Shown here: positions 5,074-64,000 of the stretch, one piece after another
How the letters are laid out: each line of letters begins with the position of its first letter
Numbering within the stretch: position 1 is the first letter of the stretch
Source: Escherichia coli 042
Lineage (GTDB): Bacteria > Pseudomonadota > Gammaproteobacteria > Enterobacterales > Enterobacteriaceae
Length of the DNA stretch: 64,000 bases
Direction: 5' to 3' (one strand)
Assembly (NCBI RefSeq): GCF_000027125.1
Contig: NC_017626.1
The notes under the pieces: model-generated
Told to the model about the DNA's origin: nothing
Seen by the model: the letters and a program-made list of their open reading frames with translations, nothing else
The model's database searches: none
Program-made: the position numbers and the translations under genes

Positions 5074-6302
5074 CGAAAGATCTTTCTATTACCTTTTGCG
5101 GCGTGAAGTTTCCCAACCCGTTCTGCCTCTCTTCTTCGCCGGTAGGCAACTGCTATGAGATGTGTGCCAAAGCCTACGACACAGGCTGGGGTGGCGTGGT
5201 GTTTAAAACGATCGGCTTTTTTATCGCCAACGAAGTCTCGCCGCGTTTTGATCATCTGGTGAAAGAAGATACCGGTTTTATCGGCTTCAAAAATATGGAG
5301 CAAATTGCTGAACATCCGTTGGAAGAGAATCTGGCCGCCCTGCGTCGGCTGAAAGAAGATTACCCAGACAAAGTATTGATCGCCTCGATCATGGGGGAAA
5401 ATGAGCAGCAGTGGGAAGATCTGGCGCGTATGGTGCAAGAAGCTGGCGCGGATATGATCGAGTGTAACTTCTCCTGTCCGCAAATGACTTCTCATGCGAT
5501 GGGTAGCGATGTCGGGCAAAGCCCGGAGCTGGTCGAATAATATTGTCGGGCAGTGAAACGCGGTTCTACGCTGCCGATGCTGGCGAAGATGACGCCGAAT
5601 ATCGGTGATATGTGCGAAGTGGCGCTGGCTGCGAAGCGCGGCGGCGCAGATGGCATTGCGGCGATTAACACCGTTAAATCCATCACCAATATCGATCTTA
5701 ATCAGAAAATTGGTATGCCGATCGTTAACGGTAAATCGAGTATTTCCGGATATTCCGGTAAAGCGGTAAAACCGATCGCCCTGCGCTTTATTCAGCAAAT
5801 GCGCACCCATCCAGAACTGCGCGATTTCCCGATCAGCGGTATCGGCGGCATTGAAACCTGGGAAGATGCGGCGGAGTTTTTATTGCTCGGCGCAGCAACG
5901 TTACAGGTGACCACCGGCATTATGCAGTACGGCTATCGGATAGTGGAAGATATGGCGAGCGGGTTGTCACATTATCTTGCCGATCAGGGGTTTGATTCGT
6001 TGCAGGAAATGGTAGGTCTGGCGAATCACAATATTGTTCCGGCGGAAGATTTAGACCGCAGTTATATTGTCTATCCCCATATCAATCTTGATAAATGTGT
6101 TGGCTGTGGACGCTGTTATATTTCCTGTTACGACGGCGGTCACCAGGCGATGGAATGGAGCGAGAAAACCCGTACACCGCATTGTAATACCGAGAAATGT
6201 GTTGGTTGCCTGCTTTGTGGTCACGTCTGCCCGGTGGGTTGTATTGATCTCGGAGAAGTGAAGTTTAAGAAGGGAGAGAAAGAACACCCGGTAACGTTGT
6301 AA
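5067..6302 (+). pseudogene. preA: dihydropyrimidine dehydrogenase subunit PreA, reading frame interrupted by in-frame TAA at 5538..5540
   Basis: ORFs 5061..5540 and 5553..6302 are in the same frame and together read ...[22 protein letters not shown]...; C-terminal part has CxxCxxCxxxCP ferredoxin motifs. Confidence 0.8.
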
Positions 6303-6306
6303 AACC

Positions 6307-6356
6307 AGCGACGCATCCGGCATTTGGCACCGATTGCCGGATGCGACGCATCCGGC
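6307..6356. repeat. REP-like palindromic elements (GCCGGATGCG type)
   Basis: Inverted copies of CGCATCCGGC / GCCGGATGCGACGCATCCGGC between preA and mglC. Confidence 0.55.
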
Positions 6357-6372
6357 AATACCCACAATCACA

Positions 6373-7383
6373 TCACTTCTTACGCGCGTATTTCAGTGAA
6401 TCCAGCGCTACGGCGAAGATAATAATCGCCCCTTTGATGATGTACTGCCAGTATGGGTTTACGCCGATGTACGTCAGGCCATAGTTGATGACGGTAAAAA
6501 TAATCACCCCGGTCACCACACCAATCACCGTCCCTACACCACCGCTGAACGATACACCGCCCACCACACACGCCGCGATAGCATCCAGCTCATACATAAA
6601 GCCGAGGTTGTTGGTGGCAGAGCCGATACGTCCGGCTTCTAACATCCCGCCAAAGGCATAGAACACACCAGACAACGCGTAGATCATCAGCAGATTCAGG
6701 CCGACGTTGACACCAGATACTTTTGCCGCTTCCGGGTTACCGCCAATGGCAAAAATGTTCTTACCGAAGCGGGTTTTGTTCCACAACACCCAGACGAACG
6801 CCACCGCAATCAACGCGTAGAAGGTGATGTAAGAGAGACGGAAACTCCCCAGCGCGACAAAGCCCTGAGCAAAGGTAGAGAAGCCACTGTCAAAACCAGA
6901 AATTGGCGACGCCCCGACAAAGTCGTAATAGAGCGAGTTGATGCCATAGACGATGATCATCGTGCCGAGCGTGGTAATGAAAGGCGTCACGTTGAGATAA
7001 GCGATAATCAGGCCGTTAATCAAACCGATCACCGCACCAATGGCACAGACAATCAGAATAACCAGCGCAATCGGCATCGTCGCCATTTCCGGGAACACTT
7101 TGTTGGCGTTATCCATGGACTGCAATAATGTCGCTGCCACCACTGCCGCCAGCCCTACTTGACGCCCCGCAGAAAGGTCGGTCCCCTGGGTGACAATTAA
7201 CCCTGCCACACCAAGCGCGATAATAATACGCACCGATGACTGGGTGAGAATATTACTTAAGTTCAACAGACTTAAAAATGTAGGATCCTGGAAAATAATA
7301 ATTGCCAGCAAAACTAAAAGAACGACGTAAATACCGCCCTCTTTCAGGTAAGTAAGAAAACTTTTCTTATTTAACGCACTCAT
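6373..7383 (-). CDS. mglC: galactose/methyl-galactoside ABC transporter permease
   Basis: 336-aa polytopic membrane ORF; synteny with mglA and mglB. Confidence 0.9.
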   Translation of the reverse strand: MSALNKKSFLTYLKEGGIYVVLLVLLAIIIFQDPTFLSLLNLSNILTQSSVRIIIALGVAGLIVTQGTDLSAGRQVGLAAVVAATLLQSMDNANKVFPEMATMPIALVILIVCAIGAVIGLINGLIIAYLNVTPFITTLGTMIIVYGINSLYYDFVGASPISGFDSGFSTFAQGFVALGSFRLSYITFYALIAVAFVWVLWNKTRFGKNIFAIGGNPEAAKVSGVNVGLNLLMIYALSGVFYAFGGMLEAGRIGSATNNLGFMYELDAIAACVVGGVSFSGGVGTVIGVVTGVIIFTVINYGLTYIGVNPYWQYIIKGAIIIFAVALDSLKYARKK

Positions 7384-62517: not shown

Positions 62518-62798
62518 GTATGATTCACGACAGCAAAGCGGAAGATCTGGAGGCTAAAGGCCTGTACCGGAGAGCGGCAGCCCGATGGGCTGAGGTCATG
62601 CAACAGGTGAACACCGATAAGGAGCGCGAACAGGCAGTAAAGCGTCGCGCGAAATGTATCCACAAGGCAGCACGTTCGCCCGTCATGCTGGATAATTTCG
62701 GGGGCTTGAGAGAGGCAGCAAACCGCACACAGGCGGATATGGGGATAGAAATCGCAAAATCTGTCTGGCGGAACTACCAGACAGACAAGGTTTTATAG
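62514..62798 (+). CDS. PerC-family transcriptional regulator-like protein
   Basis: 94-aa ORF; AEDLEAKGLYRRAAARWAEVM resembles the PerC family signature; start overlaps preceding stop. Confidence 0.5.
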   Translation: MSMIHDSKAEDLEAKGLYRRAAARWAEVMQQVNTDKEREQAVKRRAKCIHKAARSPVMLDNFGGLREAANRTQADMGIEIAKSVWRNYQTDKVL

Positions 62799-62863
62799 TG
62801 GCAGTTCTGCATTATTTTTTGTGTTATTGAGTTGTAGAGCGTTTCAGGAGTTTTTTGAATCAC

Positions 62864-63064
62864 ATGAACGTTTCGCTGGTGGATATTCTTGACAAGTTGC
62901 AGCCAGGCCGACGCGTGCCAGCTCGCCGCAGTGCCTGGCATCTTCCGTACATCGTCTTTCTCGAACGGCGCGGAAACGATTTGATTGCGTTGAATCCCGT
63001 CACAAAGGATAGCGTTACGCTATCTCCTGAGAGTCTACTAGCCACAGACTGGGAGTACTGCTAA
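62864..63064 (+). CDS. hypothetical small protein
   Basis: 66-aa ORF from ATG 62864 (ORF track begins at TTG 62855); AGGAG upstream. Confidence 0.4.
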   Translation: MNVSLVDILDKLQPGRRVPARRSAWHLPYIVFLERRGNDLIALNPVTKDSVTLSPESLLATDWEYC

Positions 63065-63131
63065 ACACAAACGCATCGAGGGTGCTGGCGTGTTGCCAGC
63101 CCCACCCCCTCCGAAATGATCCCCCAAAAAG

Positions 63132-63349
63132 TGCAAAATGATCCCCCATTAACGAACAGAAAACAAACAAAGAGCAACAAATAATCATTATTTACAATTC
63201 TTGACAAAAACACCCCCTATTTATAACCCTACCAAATTTAAAATTACATCTACAAAACAATAAGTTACAAAATCAGCAACGGATCATTTCGGAAAAAACG
63301 GTTAGTCCCTTTTTCGAAAAGGGATCATTTTGTTGCTTAAACTCATATG
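63132..63349. promoter_or_regulatory. four GATC-containing 9-bp repeats (AAATGATCC) bracketing a promoter-like element
   Basis: Direct copies at 63132 and 63154 (22-bp spacing); inverted copies GGATCATTT at 63300 and 63341; second inverted copy abuts palindrome CCCTTTTtcgAAAAGGG. Confidence 0.5.
63220..63246 (+). promoter_or_regulatory. putative sigma70 promoter
   Basis: TTGACA (63220..63225), 15-bp spacer, TATAAC (63241..63246); no ORF downstream. Confidence 0.35.
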
Positions 63350-63597
63350 CGGATTACATATCAATACGCTAGTGATAGCCGTTCTGGAATGCCACAGAAA
63401 CGCGCTGTAATCGATTCTGGCGCAATTAGCTGTGCTAGGTAATGATTTACCTATCTGGGGATGTTGCGCACGTCTGGATTGCGTTACCACCGAAGATTGT
63501 GCGCATATGGTGGCTGTTACGGTGGCCTCCCGACAACGCAAAATTGCGGCGGCACAGTCGGTTTACCGCGCTAACACGGCTTGATTCACTCGCTCGA

Positions 63598-63742
63598 CTT
63601 GTCCCACCTCCCCCCCCAACTTGTCCCAAAACAGCCTAGACTTGTCCCACCTTACCTAATTTATTTCTAACAAAATCAATTTGTTAGGTGCTGGTGGGAC
63701 AGGTGGGACGGGTGGGACGGGTGGTTTTGTATATATATATAC
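63598..63742. repeat. second iteron cluster with the same core as the primase-proximal ori, plus a (TA)6 tract
   Basis: CTTGTCCCA x3 at 63598, 63620, 63641 (21-22-bp spacing); AT-rich spacer; tandem GGTGGGAC x3 at 63693, 63702, 63711 (9-bp period); GTATATATATATAC at 63729. Confidence 0.55.
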
Positions 63743-64000
63743 GAAAAATTGCATTCAGGAGGGGGGCGAAATTCCTGCAATCCATTACTTATGGAACTGT
63801 CCGCCCCGTCAAATTTTTACGCCCGCGCAATTAAAAAAATGCGTCACGCAGGTGGGCATGATGCCGATATGCTTGTCGGGTTCAGCTTTTTAAGGCGGCT
63901 GTAGATGTCAGGTTATCCGTGCTCATCCACCAGCCAGCTTCATAGCGGATAGCCGGAAAATGGTAACGGTTAAAGCTGTACATTTTTGCAGCAAATCATT

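Follow-up and report, generated by a model that had tools for sequence, protein, structure and literature searches.

Four GATC-containing boxes around a promoter-like site in a satellite island of Escherichia coli 042: a putative operator unit

A stretch of 64,000 nucleotides from the chromosome of Escherichia coli 042 (NCBI RefSeq assembly GCF_000027125.1, contig NC_017626.1; hereafter the window) carries, near the right end of an 8.2-kb genomic island, four copies of a GATC-containing repeat, two on either side of a promoter-like site. The question raised by this locus is what these repeats, here called boxes, are for. The first-pass annotation had seen in them the signature of a methylation-sensitive switch of the pap or agn43 type, or else the operator set of an island regulator. 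Judged on the sequence comparisons described below, the element is real, non-random and conserved within a narrow lineage, and we tentatively read the boxes, with less than even confidence, as putative operator sites for a DNA-binding protein that would control a short, non-coding, rightward transcript.

Four boxes and the promoter-like site between them

The 64-kb window has exactly four copies of AAATGATCC, two on the plus strand (63114 and 63136) and two on the minus strand (63281 and 63322), against a chance expectation of 0.79; four copies were reached in none of 100 dinucleotide-preserving shuffles. The repeats can be extended to an asymmetric 12-bp box with the consensus C-R-AAATGATCC-S, present as two direct and two inverted copies, and fall into two subtypes: boxes 1 and 3 (subtype A) have the 13-mer TCCGAAATGATCC in common, and boxes 2 and 4 (subtype B) the 12-mer CAAAATGATCCC. 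On the plus strand, box 1 (CGAAATGATCCC, 63112..63123, GATC at 63118-63121) is followed at 22 bp by box 2 (CAAAATGATCCC, 63134..63145, GATC at 63140-63143); on the minus strand, box 3 (reverse complement CGAAATGATCCG, 63280..63291, GATC at 63282-63285) and box 4 (reverse complement CAAAATGATCCC, 63321..63332, GATC at 63323-63326) are 41 bp apart. The sequences, the count and the orientation of the four repeats had been described correctly at first pass, at coordinates 18-19 bp too high. The density of GATC is by itself ordinary, since at least four GATC sites occur in 2.6% of 215-bp windows; the distinctive feature is that all four lie within copies of one box. The boxes as ends of a miniature inverted-repeat transposable element or mini-transposon were ruled out, the element being single-copy per genome.

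Between the two pairs lies a sigma-70-type promoter-like site (63201..63227, plus strand), consisting of TTGACA at 63201-63206, a 15-nt spacer and TATAAC at 63222-63227, with an AT-rich upstream flank and a predicted transcription start near 63234. The site had likewise been noted at first pass, and its existence is confirmed, although it had been placed at 63220..63246. It is the sole match of at least 11/12 (spacer of 15-19 nt) on either strand of the whole window, and a match of this quality arose in 76 of 5000 local shuffles (1.5%); a standard promoter scan missed it because of its 15-nt spacer, which is below the optimal length. Neither the -35 nor the -10 hexamer is overlapped by a GATC, the nearest ones being about 60 bp upstream and 55 bp downstream. 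A Dam-sensitive promoter of the IS10/Tn5 type was rejected, as the GATC starts (63118, 63140, 63282 and 63323) miss the hexamers at 63201-06 and 63222-27.

Conservation was assessed on a set of eight alleles, 94-99% identical, which are closely related and hence non-independent. Boxes varied at 1 of 48 positions versus 23 of 173 in the remaining element (Fisher p = 0.017), and boxes and promoter hexamers taken together at 1 of 60 versus 23 of 161 (p = 0.003). The hexamers showed no variable position (0/12), and the spacer varied at 5 of its 15 positions with its length unchanged; 9 of 55 positions were variable in the stretch from box 2 to the -35, and 3 of 21 in the hairpin at box 4. Boxes 1, 3 and 4 were invariant, and the only box change, GATC to GCTC in box 2, belongs to a copy (L005) into which IS66 has also inserted, just past box 4. 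Five consecutive positions of the spacer, 63210-63214, are hypervariable, with at least five versions among the eight alleles, and alleles differ by 4 bp in the length of an (AAAC)n tract at about 63155-63172, on the upstream side of the -35.

The geometry within each pair of boxes is constant in all alleles (22 bp for boxes 1-2 and 41 bp for boxes 3-4), corresponding to about two and about four helical turns. The inner boxes have their midpoint at 63212.5, within 2 bp of the promoter centre (63214), and the outer boxes have theirs at 63222, 8 bp from it; the box centres fall at about -117, -95, +51 and +92 relative to the start near 63234. An invertible promoter (fimS-type inverton) was also considered and discarded: no inversion was observed among the 66 genomes covering at least 80% of a 401-nt query, and the full-length matches listed are single, collinear, same-strand pieces.

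A putative looped operator and its predicted transcript

If the boxes are operators, all four would be recognised by a sequence-specific DNA-binding protein of island, helper-phage or host origin. Protein bound at both pairs would bridge them, so that the promoter would come to lie within a loop of some 150-210 bp; this loop would regulate, most probably negatively, a short non-coding transcript that heads rightward across boxes 3 and 4 towards the iteron unit at the right end of the island. Because GATC is the core of every box, methylation-dependent binding would be expected, and Dam sensitivity is plausible from the sequence: binding may differ between fully methylated DNA, as in a quiescent integrated island, and under-methylated DNA, as in an island replicating after induction. 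Protein recognition coupled to promoter control is favoured because the 2 + 2 boxes are conserved, the spacings within pairs are fixed at near-whole turns and the promoter is central with invariant hexamers. The position of the unit, a self-contained module in the variable slot of an island of the phage-inducible chromosomal island (PICI) type, was also counted for the operator reading (PMC6092414, PMC11773190).

Several observations weigh against it. The 15-nt spacer is below the optimum and would make for a weak promoter unless assisted; no box overlaps the core promoter; and the invariance of the hexamers taken alone is not significant (p = 0.24). With so few alleles, and these related, conservation is supportive rather than proof. 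Because of the (AAAC)n indel, the two pairs stand 146 bp apart in three alleles and 150 bp apart in four, so that helical phasing across the promoter is not conserved. No cognate binder was found among the candidates examined (ORF69, AlpA and the integrase): ORF69, encoded just upstream of box 1, shows no DNA-binding signature by Pfam, structure model or fold search, and boxes with at most one mismatch are absent from 55914-56120, 57365-57520 and 63730-64000, near int, alpA and the att ends, which argues against AlpA or the integrase as the binder. Integrase arm-type or AlpA (recombination directionality factor) sites were discarded as the identity of the boxes for the same lack of copies near att or alpA. 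The earlier suggestion of an operator set around the promoter therefore stands in part: the conserved boxes, the midway promoter and its strong match fit, but the binder was not found.

The putative transcript would be about 100 nt long (63234..63338, plus strand), with an A/C-rich unstructured 5' half followed by boxes 3 and 4 and a hairpin. No ATG is present from the predicted start to 63347, and two open reading frames (ORFs) were rejected as promoter-driven genes, ORF50 with one synonymous versus five non-synonymous changes plus an indel, and ORF31 with a stop codon in some alleles; any transcript would therefore be non-coding. The putative RNA (106 nt) has a fold z of -2.6 and matches no Rfam family, and no description of the motif, or of a small RNA at the locus, was found in the literature. 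Esr41 was dismissed as the RNA at this locus, being located in another island. The hairpin, GTCCCTTTTTCGAAAAGGGAT then CATTTTGTTG (63305..63325, plus strand), is a weak terminator-like structure. Its folding energy of -9.5 kcal/mol in the window allele, where it is a plausible weak terminator, weakens to -4.9 in the majority allele and to -2.6 in a further one, with stem substitutions that are not compensatory. The hairpin contains the palindrome CCCTTTTTCGAAAAGGG (63307-63323), reported at first pass as abutting the last repeat; the palindrome exists, and it overlaps the fourth box by 3 nt.

Upstream of box 1, between it and ORF69, a GC-rich hairpin with no U-tract (GGGTGCTGGCGTGTTGCCAGCCCC, 63080..63103, plus strand) is invariant in the allele alignment and paired in the read-through RNA fold, and it may act as a 3'-end stabiliser, processing signal or Rho-related signal for the perC-orf69 mRNA; it is followed by the C-rich run CCCCACCCCCTCC. 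A hydrophobic minus-strand ORF (63188-63015) was rejected as a small toxin, the 4-bp indel frameshifting it in most alleles.

The host island and its variable slot

The island is inserted at tRNA-Pro(GGG) (55837-55913), between yejM and yejO, and spans 55914-64000, running about 85 bp past the end of the window to a degenerate copy of the 3' end of the tRNA, where the core chromosome resumes. Its order is int, alpA, C4-type and IsrK RNAs, Ash-like, Icd-like, DUF4222, primase-helicase, single-stranded DNA-binding protein, FinO/ProQ-domain protein, PerC-family protein, ORF69, the box-promoter unit and a second set of iterons. IsrK (58213-58289) and C4 antisense RNA (58314-58401), adjoining ash/icd, were detected by Rfam above the gathering score; together (58213-58401) they make up an RNA immunity region of the P1/P4 type, for which many Stx-converting phages have a counterpart at 84% identity. 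The primase-helicase (712 aa, DUF927) is immediately followed by GTCCCAC iterons (61309-61444), and a second GTCCCAC set (63598-63724), with an exact IHF consensus at 63674, flanks an AT-rich core near attR. In both sets oppositely oriented copies surround an AT-rich core, and the pair, one set 3' of the primase and one about 360 bp from attR, recalls the ori/crr pair of P4. The right-end iteron unit starts 270 bp downstream of the box-promoter unit, which itself lies 750-970 bp from attR.

Gram-negative PICIs are described as having an AlpA activator, an origin, located 3' of pri-rep, in which two iteron sets surround an AT-rich stretch and, often, perC homologues (PMC6092414, PMC11773190). 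By gene set and layout, the island is thus assigned to the PICI/P4-like satellites. No recognisable structural, capsid-size, terminase (TerS/Rpp) or cos functions were found in it. A FinO/ProQ-domain protein is encoded at 61981-62517 (NCBIfam FinO, 1.7e-18), about 550 bp upstream of the box-promoter unit; proteins of this kind recur in the satellite-island family, with 25 IMG/VR relatives at about 80% identity, and C4 and IsrK are candidate RNA partners.

The box-promoter unit is always co-inherited with ORF69/66 (62864..63064, plus strand), an orphan small protein with a weak match to PHROG 7206, no Pfam match and no homologues beyond its own Escherichia cluster. Its structure model is a small beta-barrel of low to modest confidence (predicted local distance difference test score, pLDDT, 69.5), and the fold search gave no significant match. 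Among PICI relatives, 25 IMG/VR elements align with the island from primase to perC at 80-88% identity; their homology is lost by about 62781 (by 62486 or 62703 in most), and they carry neither the region nor any box. In three sister islands at other chromosomal sites (L292, L293 and L008) homology resumes only at 63390. As homology with the PICI relatives stops by about 62781 and that with the sister islands resumes at 63390, the box-promoter unit and ORF69 form a self-contained, island-type-specific module (62800..63389) in a variable cargo slot.

The slot is filled differently elsewhere. The sister islands (L292 879-8540, L293 554-8239 and L008 1-5540) carry in it three large hypothetical genes (about 843, 686 and 918 aa) and a small one, with no PADLOC match among them; these genes are candidate uncharacterised cargo, possibly an anti-phage system. 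In the IMG/VR relative L115 the same slot holds a TerS/Rpp-like gene of 182 aa (6113-6661), flanked at 5900-6000 and 7130-7230 by two sequences that by eye resemble λ cos (GGGTCCTTCCGG ... TTTATGAAAATTTTTCGG), a pair reminiscent of the two cos sites that EcCICFT073 is reported to have. The right-end iteron unit of the sister islands uses a different repeat, GCGGGTTAT (L292 9240-9400), and from these alignments such a unit is, unlike the box-promoter module, a feature of the island family. Beyond it, the right-end block 63724-63951 has 70-99% identity with sequences in about 700 E. coli genomes, at up to six places per genome, and is also present in sister islands having different primase iterons; it could be a shared packaging or integrase-arm signal. 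On its minus strand, at about 63800-63813, this block carries GACGGGGCGGACAG, which we take to resemble λ cosN (8/12).

The 401-bp region was matched in 74 of 5,426 complete E. coli genomes, with 66 full-length copies at 94-99.5% identity, and in the annotated copies retrieved it adjoins yejO, as in the window. About 1.2-1.9% of complete E. coli genomes carry the island, as does E. albertii, whose copy, at 94% identity, is the sole one from another species among the genome-scan matches listed. Searches of 50,697 phage records and of 72,556 plasmids gave nothing similar to the region. The matches listed from a metagenome scan included no relative of the region; what they showed was a tandem-repeat family without relation to the island, abundant in one group of environmental samples (L294-L373, from the Ga0126336-Ga0126343 metagenome series and related ones; median GC content 40%), whose unit of about 20 bp contains TGGGGATCATTTCCGG. 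Deletion remnants of the island were seen in E. coli ECCWS199 and two other genomes (L007 8528-9067), in which the first 477 nt of int are joined to about 63374 onward.

Alternative explanations and known systems

The alternative that survives best, itself unlikely, is a cis-acting replication or packaging site, in which the boxes would be iteron- or pac-like sites for a helper-phage initiator or terminase, the AT-rich centre a melting or cleavage zone and GATC methylation the gate, as in P1 pac or P1 oriR. The case for packaging draws on the place of the unit, which fills, 3' of primase and perC, the slot where related PICIs carry a TerS-like gene and two apparent λ-like cos sites (by eye; PMC6092414, PMC11773190), and on the failure to find λ or P2 cos in the island: no λ cosN occurs at up to two mismatches, and the sole P2 cos match, with four mismatches, lies inside the primase gene. 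P1 pac is moreover Dam-dependent, with 4 + 3 TGATC(A/G) hexamers around an IHF site and cleavage zone, two of which read AAATGATCG and TAATGATCA. The boxes, however, end in TGATCC instead of TGATC(A/G), number 2 + 2 instead of 4 + 3 and are spaced 22 and 41 bp apart instead of 8-15 bp; no similar region occurs in the phage collection, and the right-end block found in about 700 genomes is the better candidate for a shared packaging signal.

As to replication, a 22-bp repeat spacing with an AT-rich core is typical of iteron origins, the right-end iteron unit starts nearby, and AAATGATCC arrays lie inside λ-O-like or DnaD-like initiator genes at 17 loci versus 1 for a scrambled control. Nevertheless, the AAATGATCC 9-mer was the search criterion for these arrays, and flank similarity past it was at chance (16 pairs with at least five flank matches versus 11-26 expected), so the phage iteron arrays are an analogy and not evidence of relationship; some of the foreign arrays encode Asn-Asp-Pro repeats, and one is situated between the genes for terminase (terL) and portal. 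In addition, no match to IHF, DnaA or the oriC 13-mer exceeded chance in the element, and the island already has a primase with two GTCCCAC iteron sets. The two-box pattern had given 106 viral loci in all, the 17 with arrays in initiator genes among them, against 30 for the scrambled control; with flanks at chance level, phage-origin iterons were rejected as relatives of the boxes.

The AAATGATCC arrays have a period of 21-25 bp (L081 2173-2267, L106 3887-3953, L096 1442-1497, L099 8708-8775 and others; L290 4969-5128; L221 6151-6226); they were seen in initiator genes of diverse metagenomic phages and also in two bacterial genomes of 72-73% GC; the array-bearing initiators are probably a clade sharing an iteron core. 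That the boxes are sites for a helper-phage protein and not for a regulator of the island or host, either Dam-gated and pac-like or initiator-binding (possibly for a P1-type pacase), or a decoy titrating that protein, we regard as very improbable.

Somewhat less likely again than a replication or packaging site is an action at the RNA level, in which boxes 3 and 4 of the roughly 100-nt small RNA would pair with boxes 1 and 2 in the 3' untranslated region of the perC-orf69 mRNA or in a read-through transcript, with the island FinO/ProQ-domain protein as pairing chaperone and the GATC incidental. The same-strand complementarity is perfect over 13 nt for boxes 1 and 3 and over 12 nt for boxes 2 and 4, boxes 1 and 3 are paired in the minimum-energy fold of the read-through RNA, and the A/C-rich 5' half, with ARN-type triplets (by eye), is followed by a structured 3' half (z = -2.6). 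The FinO-domain gene is close by, no ORF follows the promoter, and FinO-domain proteins recognise hairpins of the terminator type and help duplexes to form (PMC9674577, PMC8136791). The terminator hairpin, however, is weak, is not maintained in other alleles (-4.9 and -2.6 kcal/mol) and shows no compensatory changes; the best pairs (1/3 and 2/4) are in crossing order, neither nested nor collinear, and the near-whole-turn spacings within pairs have no RNA rationale. There is no Rfam family to point to, the C4 and IsrK RNAs of the island are more obvious FinO partners, and the 25 relatives that encode the FinO-like protein without the region argue that this protein does not depend on it.

We think it improbable that the element has no dedicated function, being leftovers of module shuffling in a variable slot that appear conserved through the youth of the alleles. 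Consistent with such an origin, the orphan module is known only from Escherichia, its alleles differ by 1-6%, AT-rich horizontally acquired DNA often has spurious promoters, and one island copy tolerates both a box mutation and an IS66 insertion. Set against this are the four exact 9-mers, extending to 12-13-mers, where 0.79 were expected, the lower variability of the boxes than of the sequence between them (p = 0.017), the central position of a promoter that is the only match of its quality in the window, and the intact arrangement kept in 66 genomes and in E. albertii.

The remaining proposal was a phase-variation switch in which Lrp (as in pap) or OxyR (as in agn43) would compete with Dam at the boxes for a heritable ON/OFF state. 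The best match to the Lrp consensus YAGHAWATTWTDCTR was 11/15, reached by 293 of 300 shuffles, and that to the pap GATC box ACGATCTTTTA was 7/11, reached by 300 of 300, neither lying on a box; the full OxyR site (ATAGnTnnnAnCTAT x2) had a best match of 12/20, reached by 151 of 300 shuffles and covering no GATC. Sites for IHF, Fis, DnaA, the oriC 13-mer and CRP were also not above chance in the element, the best IHF match (8/9 at 63255) being reached by 120 of 300 shuffles, and a Fur-like palindrome noted by eye at 63179-63191 was set aside, as it is absent from other alleles. No papI/papB-type regulators or fimbrial operon were found, the neighbours being perC, ORF69 and the iterons, and no credible gene lies downstream. 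Four conserved GATCs in repeated boxes on both sides of a promoter speak for such a switch, but with the Lrp, OxyR and pap-box matches all at chance, the GATCs 55-100 bp from the core promoter and off its hexamers, no PapI/PapB-like, fimbrial, autotransporter or other coding gene driven by it, and a satellite-island context, the pap/agn43-type signature read into the locus at first pass is not upheld and the switch itself is highly improbable.

Gram-negative PICI-type satellites are thought to be controlled mainly by AlpA, and minimal islands without packaging genes are poorly understood. If the operator reading is right, a conserved promoter-operator unit in a variable slot would be an unrecognised control point of the island, and if binding to the boxes is Dam-sensitive, island expression would be tied to replication state, quiescent versus replicating. 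If the boxes served a helper phage instead, they could be the missing cis-site by which a minimal 8.2-kb island senses or exploits its helper, or is replicated or packaged by it. The element is small and sharply delimited (four 12-bp boxes and one promoter), an orphan regulatory element of narrow distribution and not a demonstrated new mechanism.

Compared with known systems, the island as a whole is closest to PICIs such as EcCICFT073 and EcCIMP1 and to P4-like satellites, with which it shares int, alpA, ash, icd, a C4-type RNA, primase-helicase, a 3' iteron origin and perC, as well as tRNA integration and the lack of structural genes (PMC6092414, PMC11773190). It differs from the PICIs in being only 8.2 kb long, in having no recognisable TerS/Rpp, capsid-size or cos functions and in its extra iteron set near attR, and the box-promoter unit has not been described for any PICI.

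For the element itself, the pap (Lrp/Dam) and agn43 (OxyR/Dam) systems likewise have GATCs inside repeated motifs near a promoter, and competition between a protein and Dam is possible in principle; the pap GATC boxes are inverted GATC-TTTT copies about 100 bp apart. The element, by contrast, lacks Lrp and OxyR consensus matches, is not accompanied by fimbrial or Ag43 genes and has no coding gene downstream. P1 pac (AF234172 90721-90885) resembles it in that ATGATC-containing motifs, each with a Dam site, cluster at either end of 160-220 bp of AT-rich sequence, and the island carries a P1-like c4/icd region. In P1, however, the 4 + 3 hexamers, 8-15 bp apart, occupy the two ends of a stretch of about 162 bp within pacA, where an IHF site and a cleavage zone are also annotated, whereas the 2 + 2 TGATCC boxes, at 22 and 41 bp, span 221 bp of non-coding DNA with no IHF site above chance. 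Iteron origins (λ ori in O; the P1, F and R6K plasmids; PICI ori) share with the element repeats spaced by about 22 bp next to an AT-rich stretch, with opposite copies nearby; unlike a λ-type origin, the element is non-coding and has two direct copies only, instead of four or more iterons, and none of the eight island proteins scanned matches an O-like PHROG. The island encodes no cognate initiator for the boxes, its own primase using the GTCCCAC iterons.

The closest parallels for the favoured operator reading are the looped-operator promoters, namely E. coli gal, with GalR at OE and OI, and coliphage 186, with CI and the FL and FR sites flanking pR. In these, as in the element, a promoter is flanked by repeated sites that clear its -35 and -10 and stand from tens of bp to around two hundred bp apart, close enough for looping, which puts the promoter inside the would-be loop. 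The box sequence is unrelated to theirs, and the boxes are asymmetric 12-mers, two direct and two inverted, instead of palindromic operators; the distance between pairs differs by 4 bp between alleles, and no repressor was found. The element is thus a new, undescribed instance of a familiar design, a promoter bracketed by recognition sites, in a known class of islands.

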